64,000 nucleotides of DNA from Alloascoidea hylecoeti (GCA_001600815.1 BCKZ01000015.1:1-64000), one strand, 5' to 3'; shown: positions 20,333 to 61,800, counted from the stretch's first letter. A program made the numbers and translations. The notes: a model not told the origin generated them from the sequence alone.

Positions 20333-22672
20333 ATGCCTGAACTTTTATATGTTGATAATAAAGGAAATTTTACAGACTCTCATGGTCGTATTATTACTTT
20401 AAAAGGAATAAATTTAGATGGACGTTCAAAATTACCAAGTGAACCAAATATACCAACTTTTATCCCAATATCCGATAAAGATCTAAATAATTCATATTGG
20501 GATGGTGATAATGTTTCGTTTATTAACAGACCATATTCATTAAATGAATGTCACGAACATTTTAATAGAATTAAAAAATGGGGTTATAATACAATACGTT
20601 ATATTTTTACTTGGGAATCTATTGAACATTCCGGTCCTGATAAATATGATGATGATTTTATAAATTTCACAATTGAAATTTTAAAAATTGCTCAAATTTA
20701 TGATTTATATGTTTTTATGGATCCTCATCAAGATGTATGGTCAAGATATTCTGGTGGTAGTGGTGCACCATTATGGACATTATATTCAGTTGGTTTAAAT
20801 CCAAAAAATTTTAAATTTACAAATTCTGCTATAGTTGAAAATTTCTATGATGCTGATGATGATGATTTAAAAAATTATCCAAAAATGATTTGGCCAACTA
20901 ATTATAATCGTTTATGTTGTCAAATTATGTTTACTTTATTTTTTGGTGGTAAAGATTTTGCACCAAATTGTATAATTAATGATTTAAATATACAAGATTA
21001 TTTACAATTACATTTTTTAAATTCTTGTGATTATTTATATAAAAAAATTAATGATTATGATAATGGTTCATTAATGAATACAACAATTATTGGTTTTGAA
21101 ACAATTAATGAACCAAATTTTGGTTTAATTAGTTTACAAGATATTAATATTATACCAGATCATCAAAAATTAAGATTAGGAACTTGTCCAACTGCAATAC
21201 AATCAATGAGATTAGGTAATGGTATATCACAAACTGTTGATTTTTATAAATTTACTTCATTTGGTCCTAAAAAATCAGGTACTGTTACAGTTGATCCAAA
21301 AGGTGTTAAAGCGTGGTTAAGTCCTGAAGAAGTTAAAAAATTTGATTTAAAATATGGTTGGGAAAGAGGTTCAAATTGGGAAATGGGGAATTGTATTTGG
21401 GCAAATCATGGTGTTTGGGATATTAAAACTGGTGAGATTTTAAAATCAGATTATTTTGGTATTAACCATAAAACAGGTGAAATTATAAATAAAGACGATT
21501 TTACAAATATTTATTTTATTGAATATTGGGGTAAACATTTTAAAAGAATTCGAAATTTATCAAAAACTGCTTTTGCTTTATGTCAACCTCCTGTATTGGA
21601 ATTACCACCAACATTAATTGGAACTGATTTAATCGATGAAAGATGTGTTTATTGTCCGCATTATTATGATGGTTTATCATTAATGATGAAAACATGGAAT
21701 ACTTGGTATAATGTAGATACTTTGGGCTTAATGAGAGGAAGATATAGTTCTCCATTAAGTGCAATTGTTCTTGGTGAAACAAATATTAGAAAATGTCTTA
21801 GGAATCAATTCCAACAAATTAAAGATGAAGGAATTGAATATTTAGGTAATATACCATGTTTAATGAGTGAAACTGGTATGCCATTTGATATGGATGATAA
21901 GAAAGCTTATAAAGATGGGAATTATGATTCTCAAATAAGGGCATTGGATGCAATAAGTTTTGCATTGGATGGAACTTGTATGAATCATACATATTGGTGT
22001 TATAGCTCTGATAATTGTCATAAATGGGGGGATAATTGGAACAATGAAGATTTTAGTTTTTGGTCAAAAGATGATTTTCAAAAAAATTCAAAATTTAATA
22101 ATTATAAAAATAATAAAATATTTGAAACTAAAAAGTTTCTTACTGCTAATTCAAGTATAAGAAACGAAAATAGTGATGGTTCTTCATCTATTTCATATGC
22201 CAATACAATATTAGAAAATAGTTCTGATAATTTAATCTCGTTACCGCTTACACTATCAGTGGAATCAGATGAAAATGGAATAAATGGAACAAGAGCAGCA
22301 AGTAGTACGATAAGACCATATCCTGTTAAAATTAATGGGATTCCAAAATCATGGGAATTTGATAGATATAAAAGAACATTTTCGTTAAAAATCACACCAT
22401 CATCATCTCCACCAATCGAGAATAATTCCGATTCTACAAATGAATATTTATATCCAACGGAGATTTACTTACCGTCTTATCAATTTCCAGTTTCTGGTGG
22501 TTTGGATCTTGACATTGATGTTAGTAGTGGACATTGGGATTTTGATGTTCGTACAGAAGTGTTATCATGGTGGAATTACGAAGAAGGATTAGTTGAAGAG
22601 CAATATATAACAATTAGGATTAAAGAAACCGTAGCGGTTGAAGTCGATGATAATTGTTGCAAAGTTATGTAG
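20333..22672 (+). CDS. EGH1: GH5 sterylglucosidase / endoglycoceramidase-related protein (Egh1/EGCrP2)
   Basis: GYNTIRYIFTWESIEH, MDPHQDVWSRYSGGSGAPLW, acid/base INEP, PHYYDGLSL, nucleophile SETGMP, GDNWNNEDFSFWS. Confidence 0.9.
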   Translation: MPELLYVDNKGNFTDSHGRIITLKGINLDGRSKLPSEPNIPTFIPISDKDLNNSYWDGDNVSFINRPYSLNECHEHFNRIKKWGYNTIRYIFTWESIEHSGPDKYDDDFINFTIEILKIAQIYDLYVFMDPHQDVWSRYSGGSGAPLWTLYSVGLNPKNFKFTNSAIVENFYDADDDDLKNYPKMIWPTNYNRLCCQIMFTLFFGGKDFAPNCIINDLNIQDYLQLHFLNSCDYLYKKINDYDNGSLMNTTIIGFETINEPNFGLISLQDINIIPDHQKLRLGTCPTAIQSMRLGNGISQTVDFYKFTSFGPKKSGTVTVDPKGVKAWLSPEEVKKFDLKYGWERGSNWEMGNCIWANHGVWDIKTGEILKSDYFGINHKTGEIINKDDFTNIYFIEYWGKHFKRIRNLSKTAFALCQPPVLELPPTLIGTDLIDERCVYCPHYYDGLSLMMKTWNTWYNVDTLGLMRGRYSSPLSAIVLGETNIRKCLRNQFQQIKDEGIEYLGNIPCLMSETGMPFDMDDKKAYKDGNYDSQIRALDAISFALDGTCMNHTYWCYSSDNCHKWGDNWNNEDFSFWSKDDFQKNSKFNNYKNNKIFETKKFLTANSSIRNENSDGSSSISYANTILENSSDNLISLPLTLSVESDENGINGTRAASSTIRPYPVKINGIPKSWEFDRYKRTFSLKITPSSSPPIENNSDSTNEYLYPTEIYLPSYQFPVSGGLDLDIDVSSGHWDFDVRTEVLSWWNYEEGLVEEQYITIRIKETVAVEVDDNCCKVM

Positions 22673-46879: not shown

Positions 46880-48214
46880 ATGCATATGTCAATTAACTTT
46901 AAGAAAATAATAGCTATTGGAATTGCATTGCTAATTGGAATAGCAGATTCGGCACCAATGTAAGTTTGGAATTACTTCACTTACAGTTACGTACAGAATA
47001 TAAGTTAATGTTTTCATCTTTGATCTTTTAGTCAAGTGTTCAAACGCAATGATATTTCGGCCAATGTGACAAGGGGGGTAAATCTTGGTGGTTGGTTTGT
47101 CTTGGAGCCATGGATCACTCCTTCTTTGTTTGAAGCTTTCAATGATACTGTTCCAGTTGATGAATATCATTTATGTGAATATTTAGGGGAAGAAGAAGCA
47201 AAAATTGTGATGAATAAACATTGGGATACATTTTATAGACAAAGTGATTTTTATAGAATTGCAGAATATGGATTTAATACAGTTAGAATACCAATTGGAT
47301 ATTGGGCATTCGAACTTCGTGATACTGATCCATTTATCCAAGGTGCTGCTGATTATTTGGACAAGGCACTTGAATGGTCTAGGGATGCAGGGTTAAAGGT
47401 TTGGATCGATGTTCATGGTCAACCTGGTTCTCAAAATGGCTATGATAATTCGGGTCTTAGGGATGTTCGTGAATGGTATGGAGATAATATGACGTTATCA
47501 GTAAAGGTTTTAACAGAGATTGCAGAAAAATATGGACAATCTGATTATGAAGATGTTGTTGCTGGCATCGAACTCGTTAATGAACCANATGCNANATATT
47601 ATGGTGCTGACTACCTTAAATCATTTTATGAAGATAGCTATGATGCTATCAGAAATGTTTCTAACGCTACAATTATACTTCATGATGGTTATTTATACTC
47701 TTATGGAGATAATTACACCTTTTACTGGAATGATTATATGTCTTCTCCTGAATATACTAATGTTATTATGGACACCCATAGATATCAAACAAATAAATCA
47801 TTAACTATTGATGGCTTTGTTGAAAATGCTTGCCAAGCAGGTAGAGATATTAAGAATTTGACTCTCACAACTATTACTGGTGAGTGGTCTGCTGCAATGA
47901 CCGATTGCACAAGATGGATTGGTGGTGTTGGTATTGGCAGTCTTCATGATGGTACGAAGGGAGGTAATGCTGCTGCTTACATAGGCAGTTGTGCGCGAAT
48001 TAATGATATATTTGAATGGAGTGAGGAAAAGAAAATCAATACTAGAAAGTTTGTTGAAGCACAAATGGATGCTTATGAACAAGGTGCTGGATGGATATTT
48101 TGGACATTCAAAACCGAACGTTCAGCTGAATGGACTATTGATACATTGATAGAATATGATTTATTTCCACAACCACTAACAGATCGTAAATACCCAAATC
48201 AATGTGGTTATTAA
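46880..48214 (+). CDS. Secreted GH5 exo-beta-1,3-glucanase, Exg1-like (copy B); exons 46880-46959, 47032-48214
   Basis: Signal exon ...KKIIAIGIALLIGIADSAPI with the intron at the same phase-2 position as copy A; VNEP and [10 protein letters not shown] catalytic motifs; three N bases just after NEP. Confidence 0.9.
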
Positions 48215-53801: not shown

Positions 53802-54998
53802 AAAAAAAGTGGCTCTCATATTTAAACTATAAACGCAATTAATAACCACATTGATTTGGGTATTTACGATCTGTTAGTGGTTGTGGAAATAAATCATATT
53901 CTATCAATGTATCAATAGTCCATTCAGCTGAACGTTCGGTTTTGAATGTCCAAAATATCCATCCAGCACCTTGTTCATAAGCATCCATTTGTGCTTCAAC
54001 AAACTTTCTAGTATTGATTTTCTTTTCCTCACTCCATTCAAATATATCATTAATTCGCGCACAACTGCCTATGTAAGCAGCACTATTACCTCCCTTTGTA
54101 CCATCATAAACACTGCCAATACCAACACCACCATCAATCCATCTTGTGCAATCGGTCATTGCAGCAGACCACTCACCAGTAATAGTTGTGAGAGTCAAAT
54201 TCTTAATATCTCTACCTGCTTGACAAGCATTTTCAACAAAGCCATCAATAGTTAATGATTTATTTGTTTGGGTAAATTGATATCTATGGGTGTCCATAAT
54301 AACATTAGTATATTCAGGAGAAGACATATAATCATTCCAGTAAAAGGTGTAATTATCTTTCATGTATAAATAACCATCATGAAGTATAATTGTAGCGTTA
54401 GAAACATTTCTGATAGCATCATAGCTATCTTCATAAAATGATTTAAGGTAGTCAGCACCATAATATNTNGCATNTGGTTCATTAACGAGTTCGATGCCAG
54501 CAACAACATCTTCATAATCAGATTGTCCATATTTTTCTGCAATCTCTGTTAAAACCTTTACTGATAACGTCATATTATCTCCATACCATTCACGAACATC
54601 CCTAAGACCCGAATTATCATAGCCATTTTGAGAACCAGGTTGACCATGAACATCGATCCAAACCTTTAACCCTGCATCCCTAGACCATTCAAGTGCCTTG
54701 TCCAAATAATCAGCAGCACCTTGGATAAATGGATCAGTATCACGAAGTTCGAATGCCCAATATCCAATTGGTATTCTAACTGTATTAAATCCATATTCTG
54801 CAATTCTATAAAAATCACTTTGTCTATAAAATGTATCCCAATGTTTATTCATCACAATTTTTGCTTCTTCTTCCCCTAAATATTCACATAAATGATATTC
54901 ATCAACTGGAACAGTATCATTGAAAGCTTCAAACAAAGAAGGAGTGATCCATGGCTCCAAGACAAACCAACCACCAAGATTTACCCCCCTTGTCACAT
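53802..54998 (-). repeat. Right arm of the inverted repeat with 47064..48251
   Basis: The reverse complement is identical over long stretches I checked, including the same three N positions. Confidence 0.92.
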
Positions 54999-55205
54999 CG
55001 GTTGAGCTAGAATTAGTATCTCTTTTCTTGATATCGATGTTGCTAATAAAATAATTGTACGTTAGTCTCATATTCATTCGCTTCCATTACAACTATAGCA
55101 ATTAAAGCAGTTATTCATAAATTTTATGACATACATTGGGGCGGCATTAGAGCCAGCCACAACAATAAGTAAAGAAGTTCCAAAGGCTAAGAGTTTTTTA
55201 AACAT
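53839..55205 (-). CDS. Secreted GH5 exo-beta-1,3-glucanase, Exg1-like (copy C); exons 55205-55135, 55042-53839
   Basis: Signal exon [24 protein letters not shown], intron GTATGT...GACTAAC...TAG, Kex2-like KKR site; the catalytic domain is almost identical to copy B. Confidence 0.92.
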
Positions 55206-57739
55206 TATATTTTTGAATTTGTCAATTGCAATCTCTTTAGATTTGCAGGCCTATATATAGCTGGTGGTACATGTAATTATGTAATTACTAATTAGTAATA
55301 TCCGACCTATAAATTGATTTCAAGCCCTGATTTTATGTTTTTGTGCTGTAGGTAGTATAATTATAAATGACTGTAGATGTACACAAATCAGCTGTATGAT
55401 TTTGATAGTTAACCATGATTAACATTTCTTAGGATTAGTTCTAACTTCTAAGGAAACATTTTGTATACGTCGTACGTGATCTAAAATCATCGAAACATTA
55501 ATTGATACTATACGCGTCATATACAATTGCAATAATCATAAGATTTTCATCACCAGTTTCTCTAGTCTATAGATCTCTTGTTATGGTAGATTTAGCTAAG
55601 CGCTGGGAAATTACTGAAGTGTACATTGTACGGTATATGCCTAAATTTACGTATCCGCTTGTAATCAGTCAAATCTGGAGAAAAAGTTCAGATAGTACGT
55701 TTATGTATAACATTTTATATCTTTGTGAACGGACTTCTCGTATTGTAAAATCCCGTTCAATTTTCCGATTGCTACTATTTATTAAAATAATCATACTCGG
55801 AACAACTTCCAATTGTTCCGGTGATCTGGGTATAATAATCCTGGTATATGCATAAAACATATATATAGTCAAATTTTGAATATTCCGGAGTGCATATATG
55901 CATATATTATACTGTTTTATACAGTATTATACACAGAGGTTAATCCGGGAGCGATAAATTCTTAGCTGATTTCGAATTCTAAATTCTTGCACTAAATTAA
56001 TCTCTAAATGCTAAAAACTATACAGGGCCTACAGGTAAATAGAACTAGACCCTAATCATGAGTTAGTTTCGGTTGTAAATGAAAGCACTCAATTTTAAAG
56101 AATATCGCGAAGAAGAGGAAACTTTTATCCTTTTTGGCAATAACGTTAATCGTGGCTGGTGCACTGACATTTAGTTTTATATTTGATCACTTATTGATTA
56201 TTCATTAATTATATTAATATTCCAATTTTGAATAAGATCTACTATGTGGGTGATCGTGATATCCCTTTTATTTATATTTTATATAATATATGGCTAGTGG
56301 TATAATATTATATTAAGTTAGTGTTCAAGTCAGTTAAAACTAATTATAATATGAATACTGCAAATGTTTTGTTCCATAACCTTACATGTCAGGCAAGAGG
56401 AAATTATATATTAACGGACGAAGTCTCACTATATAAGTTATACGTAATAGTGAGGTGACTCGTTCTTTTAGATAAATCCAGGACCCCGAACACTACTTAT
56501 TAGTACTCACTAAAAACCTCAATCGCCAGATGTTCTCAGTGCTTCTCACCATGATCATATTTGAAACAGAATTAACGCATATGAATCCTTTTATATATAA
56601 TTATTTAACCTTATAATATGTCCCTTCTCTGTATACAGCGCGCACGTTTGTATATCTTGTAATTGTGTGCATATATATTCAAAATTTCACACATGTATAT
56701 ACATGTCATCAATTGTAAAATAGTGATAATAAATATCTCTTTAATTAATCTTGCAATTAACTGATTTGGTGGTGATCATCAATGAATTGCATCTGAGCTT
56801 TAAATTTCCCAACACCCCTTTTTGATTCAGCACAACCAACAACCAACATCATCAAGGATGTTCGTGGATATATAAATTACAAACTCTACTATGTTCTTAT
56901 TTTTATTTTATCGGATTGCGTTGAGGTGGTATACGCGTCGTATGTTGAACTCAAATATAGACCTTTACCTTACTCCGTCCCAGAGATCGCTCCTTCGAGA
57001 TTTCAGCTTTAGCTGAATTCAGGATAAGTCCTTTTTGGTTATATAAATACTTTTCTTTCCTTTCTTTTTTGTTCCTCAAGCTTTCAATTTATAATTAGTA
57101 GTTATCTTAGATATCACTTAAGATCACCAATAGGATCTTAATTGTTTAAATTTACAATGGTATTTTAACAGAGTATTAACAATCGTTAAATATTTCATCT
57201 ATAACTCATATAATAATACTTTTGCTTTTCATTTACAATTACACAAAATATAATATAGGCATATACAAATCTCGCGACATCAAAGCATCAATAATATGCA
57301 CTAACAACATGGATAAATTACCCCATTACCCCCTAGGTCTCATGCACCTGATCGAAGGTTCAATCTTGACTTCTTAATCATATATGATGAACTTTTCTTA
57401 ACACCCCTGTTCGAAACTAACTCAACCTACTGCCAACAAAGATAAATAAAAATTCTGAAGATGTTAGCTAATAAATAATTGAAAAATAGAATCAATTTAA
57501 TTTTTTTCATTCATCCATTGGATTTCCATATAAAGTAATTCTGCAAATATGCATATCTGGATAGAGTAAATATGCATATGCGCAGTGTATTTAGAAGCAA
57601 TCGATATCCGGATCCGTCCTTGGTGAAATTATCAATACCTCCCATATGTAAGCAGGTTCATTTTAGATGATCATGATCACCGCACTAGTAATAAAATCCT
57701 CAAATTTACATATAATTTCCAATTAATACTCCCAAATAA

Positions 57740-58672
57740 TTTTTTTTTAACTTTTCATATATTTTCCAGTAAGATTATATAAGTAGAAACTATGCCAATT
57801 CTGAGGAAATCCATTATATATAGTAATAAAACCTCTTTTTCTATTCTCTTCATTTTTGTGTCTTGACTTCTTCTTTCTTCCCTAATTATTAACCTAGACC
57901 ACCTTAAAAGTAAATATTTTTGTTTTTTTCTTTATTAGAATCCCCCAATCAATCTCATTTAATATATTTTTTTTTTAACTTTTCATATATTTTCCAATTA
58001 AATTATATAACTAGAAACGATGTAAATTCTGAGGAAATCTCTATTATATATAGTGAAATAAAAACCTCTCTTTCTATTCTTCTTATTTTTGTGTATTCTT
58101 GACACTCTTCTCTCTTCCCTTCTTATGTACCTAGACCACCTTAAAAGTAATTTTTTTTTTTTTTTAGATATATTTTACTTTTTCAAGTTTTTAGATATTA
58201 GAATCCCCCAATCAATCTCATTTAATATTTGTGGTGGTGTTCCTGCAAATCTAATATTTTTCCTTAGCTCTAGTGCCTTTTTGATAAAAGCCCATTTTTT
58301 TCTATATGGTTATCTTTTGGATTTAAGATCAATAATTTGATCCCAATTCTATCGCTTCCTAACATCATCTTCTTTAGTATTCTTATGGTTGAGCAATCTT
58401 CAAATAGATGTAATATGTCGTCTTTACCTTGTTGACATAAACTACAAATATCAGATTTTTGCCACCATTGTTTTGCTTTTTTGTTAGGATGTAGTAGTGT
58501 GTGTCCCTGCAAATCTAATATTTTTTCCTTAGCTCTAGTGCCTTTTTGATAAAAAGCCCATTTTTTTCTATATTGTTTTCTTTTGTATTTATGATCAATA
58601 ATTTGATCCCTATTCTTTCTCTTCCTAACATCATCTTCTTTAGCACTCTTATTATTGAGCAATCTTCAAATA
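57740..58672 (-). mobile_element. Stack of three truncated non-LTR (L1-like) retrotransposon 3' fragments
   Basis: ORF2 C-terminal zinc knuckle CSLCQQGKDDILHLFEDC (CX2CX8HX4C), followed by KWAFIKKALELRKNIRF. Duplicated blocks 58503-58672 ~ 58240-58408 and 57740-57966 ~ 57967-58228. Two copies end in GAAAATATATGAAAAGTT plus a poly(A) run. Confidence 0.8.
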
Positions 58673-58765
58673 ACCCAAGCTGGGAAAATGTATTGGGAAG
58701 TGTGGTAAAGAGTGTTGACCTTAAAAATGTCACGACACAAAAATGTTTTACAAAAACAGAGAGTT

Positions 58766-58848
58766 GGAGGGTTGGCCGAGTGGTCTAAGGCGGCAGACTT
58801 AAGATCTGCTGGACGTTGTCCGCGCGAGTTCGAACCTCGCATCCTTCA
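58766..58848 (+). tRNA. tRNA-Leu (anticodon UAA), intronless, long variable arm
   Basis: GGAGGGT TGGCCGAGTGG (A box), anticodon arm GCAGA-CTTAAGA-TCTGC, GTTCGAACC (B box), ATCCTTCA, then a downstream T-tract terminator. Confidence 0.97.
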
Positions 58849-61800
58849 TTATATTTTTCCTTTTTTGGGATATCTAATTCTCTGGGTCTTGCGTCTCGGC
58901 TCTGTGGTGCAATGGATAAAATACGCTATTCACACATGTAAATTTTTTGTTATTTGTTAGGGGTTTTTAGTGGGTATCGCTTAAAGTTGAGTCCCACACC
59001 AATGAAAAAAAAACGATTCTCTTGAGTGAGAACATTCAGTGGTAATTTCCCAATGGAACTAGCGCCATCAAGAAAGTCAAAAAAAAGAAATAGAAATTTC
59101 AACTCTTCAAAAGTAGGCGATTAATCATCTACCAAATCAGAATTTGTTAAACTCACAGGCATTTGATATGAGGGTGAAGATAAATAATAAGTAGTTTTGT
59201 ATTGACTGAATTGTTTGATTGATTTTTCCTATGAAGGGAAAAATCGTTCTTTATATCCGTATATGTTAGCTTTTTTCTTTATCTATCTATATGTAAAAAT
59301 AAAGAATATCAAATAAAGACAAAGATATAAAAATAAACATAGAATTATCTCAAACAATGGTTTGATTCTTTCATCGATGTGATGGCCTTGACGTATTATT
59401 TATCTGTCACTATTGAAGTTAGTGTTTCTAACATTCTCACACATGATATAAACATTTAAATACAAAACAAATATTAAAGATCACCTGTCAATGGAAACAG
59501 TTAAGAGTGCTGATTTCCCCATTCTCTCGAAATTGAATTACTAATGGAAATTTTCGCTATAGTTCAAAATTCAGCAAAATGAGATATTGACAAAATTCAA
59601 AAAGAACTTTTTTTGCTCGAAATAATTAATTGATTTAGATACTATTTAAACACTCGAAGAACGGTATGGTATGTGCATGCTAATGAACATCAAAAAGGGT
59701 TAAATTCTAATTTATTTGCTCCCTGATTTATTACTTAAAGAAAGCCAACCAGGAATACTAATAAATTAAAGAGCAATCTTTTTGCGAAGATCAAATAGAG
59801 AATATCATTTTCCATACTACTGGTATTATCTAATACGTGGATTCAGCAGAAACATCATAAGTTACTAAACTTACCAATAAATCCACCAGAGTCACATCAA
59901 TAACGAAAGATGGAGCGCTTATACTTTTGATAATCTCATCAAAAAATGAAAATAACTAAATTTGGAAAAAATTGGACATTCCGTTAGATACTAGTCTGGC
60001 ATTCCAACCTTCAACCTCTTTCTTTTTTCTCCCAAATCGTTATAACTCTAAAATACATATCAACAAATATACAGGTGTAATTGAAATTAAAAAATCTGTA
60101 GAAAGATTCCTGCTGAGCAATTCAACCCCGAGACACTTCACTGAAGCCGATAAAATTTGAATGTGGAGTATAAGAAACAATTTTGAGCTATCAACTTCGG
60201 AAATACCCTATAAGATCTCTCTTCACAGCATAGAACCAAATTTCTGCTCCAAAATTATATCTTGAATGTCGAGAAGGAGGTGAATGAACTATTAAACTAT
60301 GGAGGTGGCAATATAGCATTGCATCAACCGAATTTAAAATATGTTGTTCGTTATATATTTCAAAATAAATGAAAGAGGAGAGAAGAAAAAATTCAAAGTA
60401 TCTTATACCTCAAACCTGGTATTGAAACAGAAAATAAATCTAGTATAACTTATACGTAGTTGTAATTGGAAGATTATTAATTAAGCAAATGATATAGAAT
60501 ATATATAAATTATAGGTGTTTTTTCTGTTAACATTACCACTACATAATACATATTCACCGTTGAAAGACTTAGATCCCTACAATATTCAAACTAGAAATG
60601 TTAATTATAATAGATTTCTTTTCGAACGGGAAATTAAGGTGCCAATTCATCTACTCTAGATTTATTGGATGATTTTTTAGTGGTGGTGTGAGATTTGGAG
60701 GTTACTTGGTCAAGGTGATAGGAATGGCTACTACATGTATATTAAAACTGCAGAAAAGATGAATATTAAAAGCAAGGACATAGCACGCATAATATCGTTC
60801 TTGCGGGTGTTACAATATTGGGAAGGGTAAGGTATGAAAAAGCTTATTCCATAAAAAATGATTTGGAAGAGATCTTCTACATAACTTATTTACAACATAG
60901 CCGATTATATTATAATCATAAATTACGGTCTAAAAAATATGTTAAATTTTATTAATTAATTATGTAAGTAATTTTCTAAAGTACTTCACAAACTTCACAT
61001 CTTAAATTTGGGTTATTGCGATATAAATATTTGTCATATATCCATACTTATATATAATTATACTATGTATAGCTAGCGCTAAAGATATCTCTCCAAAATC
61101 AAATTTCCAAATATAATTGTTAGAATTAAATGTATAATGTTTATATTATATATACCGGTATGACATATATCTTCATTTCTAATAAAAATTTATATTGCAA
61201 TAATATATATTGTGCATTCAATATTTCCGAAATTCCTTAAATTTTACAATTAATATTATAATTTACAAGATTGAACACTATATGTTATAATTCGAGACTT
61301 AGTAAAATCCAAATTATCCAATTGAGTCAACGTCGGGGCAGTTCGGAATTTCTGCTGTTTGTAATAAATTATAATTATAGCCAAATTTCCCTATAGGAAT
61401 AGGAATTATTAGGAATCAAATAATATTCAAATTCAAATTTTTTTAATACAGTATTGCAATTGGTGTACTCAGTGCTACTCTGTACTAATATTGTAACTTT
61501 AACCGCATAAGGAAAGTGGGGAAACTATATTTCTATTAGAAATAGATGTAGTTAATGTTTAAATTTTCAATTTCACATATAAGCTTATATTTATGTTCAG
61601 CCATAGCTTTAAATCTTTTGTAATTATTAGTCTCCCTTTAAATTTACTCTATAGCTATACCATACGTTTTCACAATATTAATGCATACATATATACCAGT
61701 GTATTATGGCTAGCTATAAGGTAATAGTTAGCGAGGTTGTATTATATTAATTATATATACTTATAGATCTCGATCACGATAGTTTTGATAGCTTCATGAA

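Follow-up and report, generated by a model that had tools for sequence, protein, structure and literature searches.

A nested pair of retrotransposon copies lies just upstream of a leucine tRNA gene in a 64,000-nt stretch of DNA from Alloascoidea hylecoeti (GCA_001600815.1, BCKZ01000015.1:1-64000; "the window" refers to this whole stretch). Three minus-strand pieces, labelled A, B and C from the tRNA gene outward, belong to one family of poly(A)-type elements that lack long terminal repeats (non-LTR elements), or long interspersed elements (LINEs), an assignment that is well founded. A and C are the two halves of a single ~0.4-kb copy, which was later split by B, a member of a sister subfamily that inserted in the same orientation. 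The locus thus records two insertion events, plus a possible older relic of 25 nt (D). We hold this anatomy, two successive events of target-primed reverse transcription (TPRT) by an abundant family in an AT-rich ascomycete yeast, with high confidence. We lean only slightly toward the further proposal that the family is steered to sites upstream of the genes that RNA polymerase III (Pol III) transcribes, with its 5' end facing the gene and within a looser distance window than that of the Dictyostelium element TRE5; anatomy and tRNA targeting taken together have about even chances. The alternative that survives best retains the two nested TPRT insertions without tRNA-directed integration: insertion would be near-random in AT-rich DNA, and copies would survive only in long gene-free intervals, which often hold tRNA genes. 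We consider that account possible, though doubtful.

The three minus-strand pieces had first been pointed out in a sequence-only reading of this DNA, and all three were present where it had placed them. Segment 58501-58672 of A aligned with 58237-58406 of B at 91.9% identity over 172 nt, and segment 57740-57965 of C aligned with 57968-58228 of B at 78% identity over 261 nt. B and C share the same 3' terminus, followed by A-runs of 10 nt in B and 9 nt in C, as that reading had described; on the plus strand these appear as T-runs at 57967-57976 and 57740-57748. The limits it gave for the fragments held broadly, except that the 5' end of B is at most 58494 and not 58500, since the five nucleotides TGTAG at 58490-58494 can be assigned to either B or A.

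Copy B consists of a coding part (58178-58494), a stop codon (58175-58177), a 3' untranslated region (UTR) of 198 nt (57977-58174) and the poly(A) run. The stop, the UTR and a 1-nt deletion near 58296 were placed from the end of the family's open reading frame (ORF) as it reads in P0014, P0007 and A, namely ..FIKKALELRKNIRFAGTPPQILNEID.GIL.SKNLKK and a stop. The motif C-X2-C-X8-H-X4-C that the sequence-only reading had seen is present in P0001, a minus-strand peptide of B (58273-58491). The tryptophan of the second motif in that reading, W..RN..F, falls outside the family frame, in which the sequence is ..NGLFIKKALELRKNIRF.., because it lies upstream of the frameshift caused by the 1-nt deletion in B. 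In fragment A, one extra nucleotide in an A-run brings on a premature stop; the fragment is closest to the database fragments P0007 (88.5%) and P0006 (87.0%). In the 3' UTR, C has a gap of ~26 alignment columns relative to B. The A/C copy and B are both dead, being 5'-truncated and frameshifted. The 3' UTR of B also holds an internal run of ~15 A's (T's on the plus strand) at 58149-58163, of which C has a shorter, interrupted version; read contigs appear cut at 58139-58178.

That A and C were once joined is indicated by their breakpoints and by their flanks. The 3' break of A and the 5' break of C fall at the same element position to within 5 nt, and joining the end of C at 57966 to the start of A recreates the continuous sequence found in B at 58215-58250. 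In addition, A and C are bracketed as a unit by two copies of CAAATAA, a probable target-site duplication. When 20,000 pairs of positions were drawn at random from the DNA nearby, only 0.18% shared 7 nt or more with ±4 nt of slack (P 0.0018). Six of the seven nucleotides of the right copy also equal the element's own sequence, which points to microhomology at this junction. No target-site duplication was found around B in the junction comparison. The coincident breakpoints and the duplication flanking A..C together argue that A and C are one insertion, and the duplication fits one insertion later split by B, not three separate ones.

The sequence-only reading had instead proposed three independent 5'-truncated insertions, stacked head to tail, with each new one nearer the tRNA gene. 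The three separate homologous blocks and their unequal divergence (92% and 78%) would agree with this. However, A carries neither a 3' UTR nor a poly(A) run, in element coordinates it ends exactly where C begins, and the 7-nt duplication brackets the 5' end of A and the poly(A) of C, not each piece. Repeated insertion upstream of the tRNA gene in the opposite orientation therefore stands, as two events, while three independent insertions are very unlikely. Less probable still is a single insertion followed by local tandem duplication or unequal recombination, a case which that reading had itself raised against its claim and which we reject: the direct repeats, at a spacing of 228-266 nt, look superficially like an array, but B reaches 88 nt further 5' than A with sequence absent from A/C (58407-58494), A/C and B each resemble fragments in the databases, which come from other contigs, more than they resemble one another (identity of P0005: 89.6% to B, 63.8% to A; of P0007: 88.5% to A, 74.3% to B), and the 3' UTRs of C and B differ by indels and ~22% substitutions when the ORF part differs by only 8%. 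The extra 5' sequence and the different subfamily show that B is not a local duplicate of A/C.

The junctions suggest how the two insertions probably proceeded. In the first event, the plus strand would have been nicked after CAAATAA, 92 nt upstream of tRNA-Leu(UAA), that is, between -93 and -92 relative to tRNA +1, with a stagger of 7 nt. The 3'-OH of the last A in the left CAAATAA would then have primed reverse transcription of A/C on poly(A) RNA, since the T-run directly follows ..CAAATAA-3' on the plus strand. The cDNA would have grown toward the tRNA gene, stopped after ~0.4 kb and been joined via the microhomology of 6 of 7 nt, leaving the 7-nt duplication. In the second event, the 528-nt copy B would have inserted bluntly into A/C in the same orientation, at what was then ~270 nt upstream of the tRNA gene; its primer would have been the ..TAATATA-3' end within A/C, and it would have joined over 5 nt that may be microhomology, leaving no duplication. 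No poly(A) or poly(T) tract is present at either nick site, and the sense-strand 5' flanks (..CTTGGG then TTATTTG for A/C; ..CTACTACA for B) are not A-tracts.

Features of the insertion locus and the adjoining tRNA gene (positions counted from the first nucleotide of the window)
Feature	Position	Strand	Remarks
Possible relic D	57702..57726	-	25 nt; 22/25 match to the element 3' terminus; no poly(A)
Probable target-site duplication, left copy	57733..57739		CAAATAA; directly adjoins the T-run of C
Fragment C, 3' half of older copy	57740..57966	-	last ORF2 codons, 3' UTR, poly(A) 57740-57748
Copy B, younger nested insertion	57967..58494	-	528 nt; ORF2 C-terminal coding region, CCHC motif
Fragment A, 5' half of older copy	58495..58672	-	ORF2 C-terminal region, ..LFEDCSIIRVLKKMMLGRERIGIKLLIINTKENNIEKNGLFIKKALELRKKY and stop; 91.9% to B
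Probable target-site duplication, right copy	58667..58673		CAAATAA; overlaps the truncated 5' end of A
Spacer, insertion site to tRNA +1	58674..58765		92 nt; no significant similarity to the element
tRNA-Leu(UAA) gene, class II	58766..58848	+	Rfam RF00005, 54.5 bits, E 5.9e-9

Beyond the poly(A) of C, D aligned with the element at 88% in the repeat search, with a score of 19 compared to a mean of 11.7 and a maximum of 16 for shuffled sequences (0 of 200 shuffles reached it). Contigs of a related subfamily also match at this position (loose end 57709, joint 57726>58008). From its sequence, D may be an older relic in the same orientation.

The protein evidence for a LINE is confined to the C-terminal region of ORF2. 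The Pfam family zf-RVT matched 3 of 11 family fragments (P0001, P0007 and P0009) with E-values of 3.5e-4 to 9.3e-4 and scores of 20.3-21.6 bits, below the 27.5-bit cut-off and always on profile positions 47-82; it gave nothing in the other eight. The Atlas feature neighbours of P0005 include a zf-RVT cluster (score 0.96), which we treat as a lead only. The CCHC motif alone occurs in several non-LTR clades, and the L1-type affiliation proposed in the sequence-only reading is tentative. A search for near proteins returned 3 matches of 3, and a search for longer proteins (129 residues or more) 1 match of 10 candidates; all were short, broken pieces. A family profile built from six fragments and searched against 1.84 billion representatives gave 10 matches at E ≤1e-3, of which nine were short family fragments (38-159 aa) and one an unrelated repetitive protein of 1337 aa; none was a long ORF2. 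This search likewise detected no ORF2 similarity to L1-clade yeast elements, which carries little weight because the C-terminal region is short and fast-evolving. The PDB sequence-profile search produced only chance-level matches (E 0.12 or worse), and the open frame of the 3' UTR, used as a query for ORFs chimeric with 5' flanks, produced two candidates, none at E ≤0.1. The exact pattern of the 3' terminus or of the ORF end was not found in genome_contigs, metagenome_contigs or viral_contigs, and none of the 552 pattern stretches in metagenome_contigs and 142 in viral_contigs from a protein-profile locus search was confirmed by tblastn. The 1337-aa protein (P0011, from the representative library) matches the family profile in seven stretches through a repeated C-x-x-G-x-P-D-L-x-H-x-F-E-T-D-I-R-type motif that resembles the CCHC core of the LINE; either coincidence or descent of the repeat from a zf-RVT-like knuckle could account for this.

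We examined the size of the family by placing contigs of four public runs on a 1.6-kb stretch around the locus at ≥80% likeness. Between 206 and 276 contigs per run were placed, in 4 of 4 runs. Single-copy flanks had depths of ~22-34 (run X1), 58-60 (X3) and 8-9 (X4), while the summed depth in the bin 57994-58047 reached 10,046, 31,182 and 3,574, respectively, and that of the ORF part (58210-58479) was ~400-1,250 in X1. Relative to single-copy flanks, the last ~100 nt of the element thus stood a few hundred times higher and the ORF part roughly 10-55 times higher, although summed contig depth is not equal to copy number and these ratios are not copy counts. There seem to be on the order of hundreds of 3' termini and about ten-fold fewer ORF ends, and the 3'-heavy gradient is the pattern given by 5' truncation. 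Among the loose ends listed at 57967-57969, three per run, 18-23 contigs had flanks that agreed poorly (0.46-0.55), which indicates many different insertion sites. In each run 2-3 contigs ran past 58494 with a single consensus (agreement 0.97-1.0) encoding ..GYVTHM.., as in the longer fragments P0007 and P0012. B is therefore 5'-truncated, as longer copies continue beyond its end. The truncation point varies within the family: B starts at 58494 and A/C at 58666-58672, P0005, P0008 and P0012 extend further 5', and others stop at 58003 or 58121. The family is dispersed and present in high copy, and together with the A-runs this bears out the earlier description of a poly(A)-tailed, 5'-truncated non-LTR element.

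A preference for tRNA genes is suggested, first, by the arrangement within the window. A/C, B and relic D all lie on the minus strand within 1.1 kb upstream of the plus-strand tRNA-Leu gene, with their 5' ends facing it. ARAGORN (58765-58849, anticodon taa) and Rfam found this gene as the only tRNA gene of the whole 64 kb, and both put it 92-93 nt from A, in line with the ~93 bp of the sequence-only reading. The window's only element copies thus adjoin its only tRNA gene: blastn at E ≤1e-3 found no others in the window, with looser blastn settings only short A/T-rich stretches of low complexity matched, and 13 fragments used as tblastn queries gave nothing else.

The second indication comes from P0004, a 159-aa fragment from a different contig with a different truncation point, whose ORF includes the peptide PPGVEPG. 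When this peptide is back-translated and the reverse complement is taken, it corresponds to a 5-bp stem, a YTCNACN loop and a matching 5-bp stem, that is, to a tRNA T-arm with a B box. The best cloverleaf, of class II and 84 nt in length, had a log-odds score of 20.96 compared to 10.27 ± 3.11 for shuffled peptides (maximum 20.74; 0 of 100 reached the observed value), and 19 of its 21 pairs were compatible. The LINE part of P0004 begins ~59-70 nt beyond the inferred 5' end of the tRNA, in the same relative orientation as at the tRNA-Leu locus. Both loci with a visible 5' flank (2 of 2) therefore have tRNA or tRNA-like sequence 60-92 nt away. Two weak contig joints also connect LINE-like pieces to the start of a class II tRNA (sides 21-22 nt). 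Several contig joints (57549/57551>58772, 57726>58765 and 58232>58581>58601>58765) are hints only, as their sides are just 21-30 nt long, at 80% likeness, and are separated by unknown letters; no clean empty site appeared among the contig joints.

Several points weigh against such targeting. Only two loci show a 5' flank, and the fixed antisense orientation was seen in only 3-4 events. The window was flagged for its tRNA gene, an ascertainment bias, and P0004 could surface in the search for longer proteins only because no stop codon interrupts its flank, a condition that favours flanks rich in GC, tRNA genes among them. The tRNA of P0004 is read from a peptide, not from DNA; two of the 21 cloverleaf pairs are incompatible, and a cruder test that counted pairs able to form, which had no power, gave 27 pairs compared to a shuffle mean of 27.4, with 262 of 300 shuffles reaching the observed count. 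The spacing to the tRNA gene is loose (92 nt for A/C, ~59-70 nt for P0004 and ~270 nt for B at insertion). The tRNA-Leu gene sits within a 7-kb interval without ORFs of ≥100 aa except chance frames, and insertions there may simply have been tolerated. Protein searches and contig scans recovered no reverse transcriptase, apurinic endonuclease or ORF1 of the element, the longest copy comprising the C-terminal ~110 codons, and the depth ratios described above fall short of a count of copies.

The gene-free interval, the unequal distances and the ascertainment bias at both loci speak for near-random insertion followed by selective survival. In that account, B would have landed in A/C because old LINE sequence is a neutral, A/T-rich target. 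The yeast precedents point the same way: excerpts of the published work describe Zorro3 as targeting poly(A) tracts and Ylli as nicking AT-rich DNA, and report no tRNA preference (PMC7175516, PMC5014426). Against it, the window has several further ORF-free intervals, of 4-6 kb, and these hold no copy; all events share one orientation relative to the tRNA gene, that of P0004 included; and a compact genome with apparently hundreds of 3' ends needs some safe-haven strategy. tRNA targeting is alive and testable, and what supports it is suggestive, not a demonstration.

We compared the locus with known systems using excerpts of the papers cited here, to which the following statements are limited. 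A 2018 review (PMC5911963) lists tRNA-targeting non-LTR elements in dictyostelids only (TRE5, TRE3, NLTR-A and NLTR-B), in agreement with PMC5006619, and states that the target specificity of fungal LINEs has not been elucidated. We found no yeast or other fungal LINE at tRNA genes in the literature searched, where an unindexed report is possible. Like A/C and B, TRE5-A and NLTR-B are non-LTR elements that lie upstream of tRNA genes and are transcribed in the other direction, their 5' end facing the gene (PMC5911963, PMC5006619); also in common are an oligo(A) or poly(A) 3' end, repeated insertion at one tRNA gene and a zinc-finger region at the C-terminus of ORF2, which here is a putative one. 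The spacing differs, as TRE5 inserts 40-54 bp and NLTR-B 39-64 bp upstream (PMC5911963) compared to 92, ~59-70 and ~270 nt here, a broader window than that of TRE5. So do the hosts: those of TRE5 are dictyostelid amoebae, whereas the host here is an ascomycete yeast, in which a genome-wide preference is unproven.

Among yeast elements, Zorro3 of Candida albicans and Ylli of Yarrowia lipolytica, L1-clade LINEs of budding yeasts, likewise belong to the non-LTR type, end in poly(A) and have numerous 5'-truncated copies, and their ORF2 has a zinc-finger region at the C-terminus (PMC3956500). Ylli is present in strain CLIB89 as 104 fragments of 30 bp-1 kb and 17 full-length copies, with no target-site duplications identified (PMC5014426). 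Zorro1/2 are subtelomeric (PMC7175516, PMC3956500). Zorro3 integrates in poly(A) tracts, with poly(A) on both flanks (PMC7175516), which neither A/C nor B does. The LTR elements Ty1/Ty3 of Saccharomyces cerevisiae resemble the present pair of copies in that, within a compact yeast genome, they accumulate in nested clusters upstream of tRNA genes, and the broad window of Ty1, up to ~750 bp-1 kb, is similar to the loose distances here (PMC5911963, PMC5006619). They differ in that they use an integrase, not TPRT, and lack a poly(A) end and 5' truncation.

Compact genomes leave transposons little room, and the known survivors aim at safe havens. In the excerpts consulted, LINE-type targeting of tRNA genes is described only in social amoebae, and in yeasts only LTR elements with an integrase are described as doing so (PMC5911963, PMC5006619). 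We regard it as an evenly balanced question whether a LINE family of a budding yeast, seemingly represented by hundreds of 3' fragments, most of them tiny, has come independently to target sites ~60-300 nt upstream of Pol III genes, oriented against them. If so, it would be, within the literature searched, the first tRNA-gene-targeting non-LTR retrotransposon outside dictyostelid amoebae, and a further independent origin of Pol III targeting, of the TPRT type, in an organism close to yeast genetics. In such a tractable fungus one could ask how a nick-first TPRT machine reads a Pol III transcription complex, and what makes its spacing rules different from those that TRE5 follows. Even without targeting, a family with apparently hundreds of 3' fragments in a yeast of ~29% GC is notable for surveys of yeast transposable elements, and so is the locus itself, where a nested insertion resolves cleanly, down to a probable target-site duplication and microhomology at the junction.

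The surrounding DNA is that of a fungus. The window has a G+C content of 29.4% and contains genes typical of fungi (Fungal_trans, GH76 mannanase, ATG1-type kinase and GPR1/FUN34), and the nearest Atlas clusters of its GH76 protein are from Ascomycota. In the spacer between A and the tRNA gene, a 22-nt stretch (58724-58745) that matches C in inverted orientation was considered as a fragment in the opposite orientation and rejected, as 4 of 200 shuffles reached its score. Just 3' of tRNA-Leu, the stretch 58899-58935 looks by eye like the 5' half of a tRNA (acceptor and a D-arm-like part); it received no Rfam call at E ≤5 and no ARAGORN call at the default setting or at -ps90. The loosest ARAGORN setting (-ps80, introns) gave only an implausible reverse-strand tRNA-Gly with a 110-nt intron (58815-59008) and a tRNA-Val (59123-59216), which we did not accept.

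On the other side of the locus, 150-200 nt beyond the LINE block, lies an imperfect palindrome based on ATATGCATAT (57541-57585). Eight nucleotides at 57553 are missing in one contig of each of four runs, a difference that reflects either polymorphic length at this site or a paralogous copy. In a wood-decay metagenome run (X2), contigs match the flanks of the locus at 57400-57768 and 58829-59000 with 0 differences, and the host yeast appears to occur in that habitat. Another wood-decay run and an insect-metagenome run (X5 and X6) also had small shares of matching words. Elsewhere in the window there are three paralogous GH5 (Pfam Cellulase) glucanase-like ORFs (20333-22672, 47210-48214 and 53839-55077), two of which contain isolated assembly N's, at 47588-47595 and 54467-54474.

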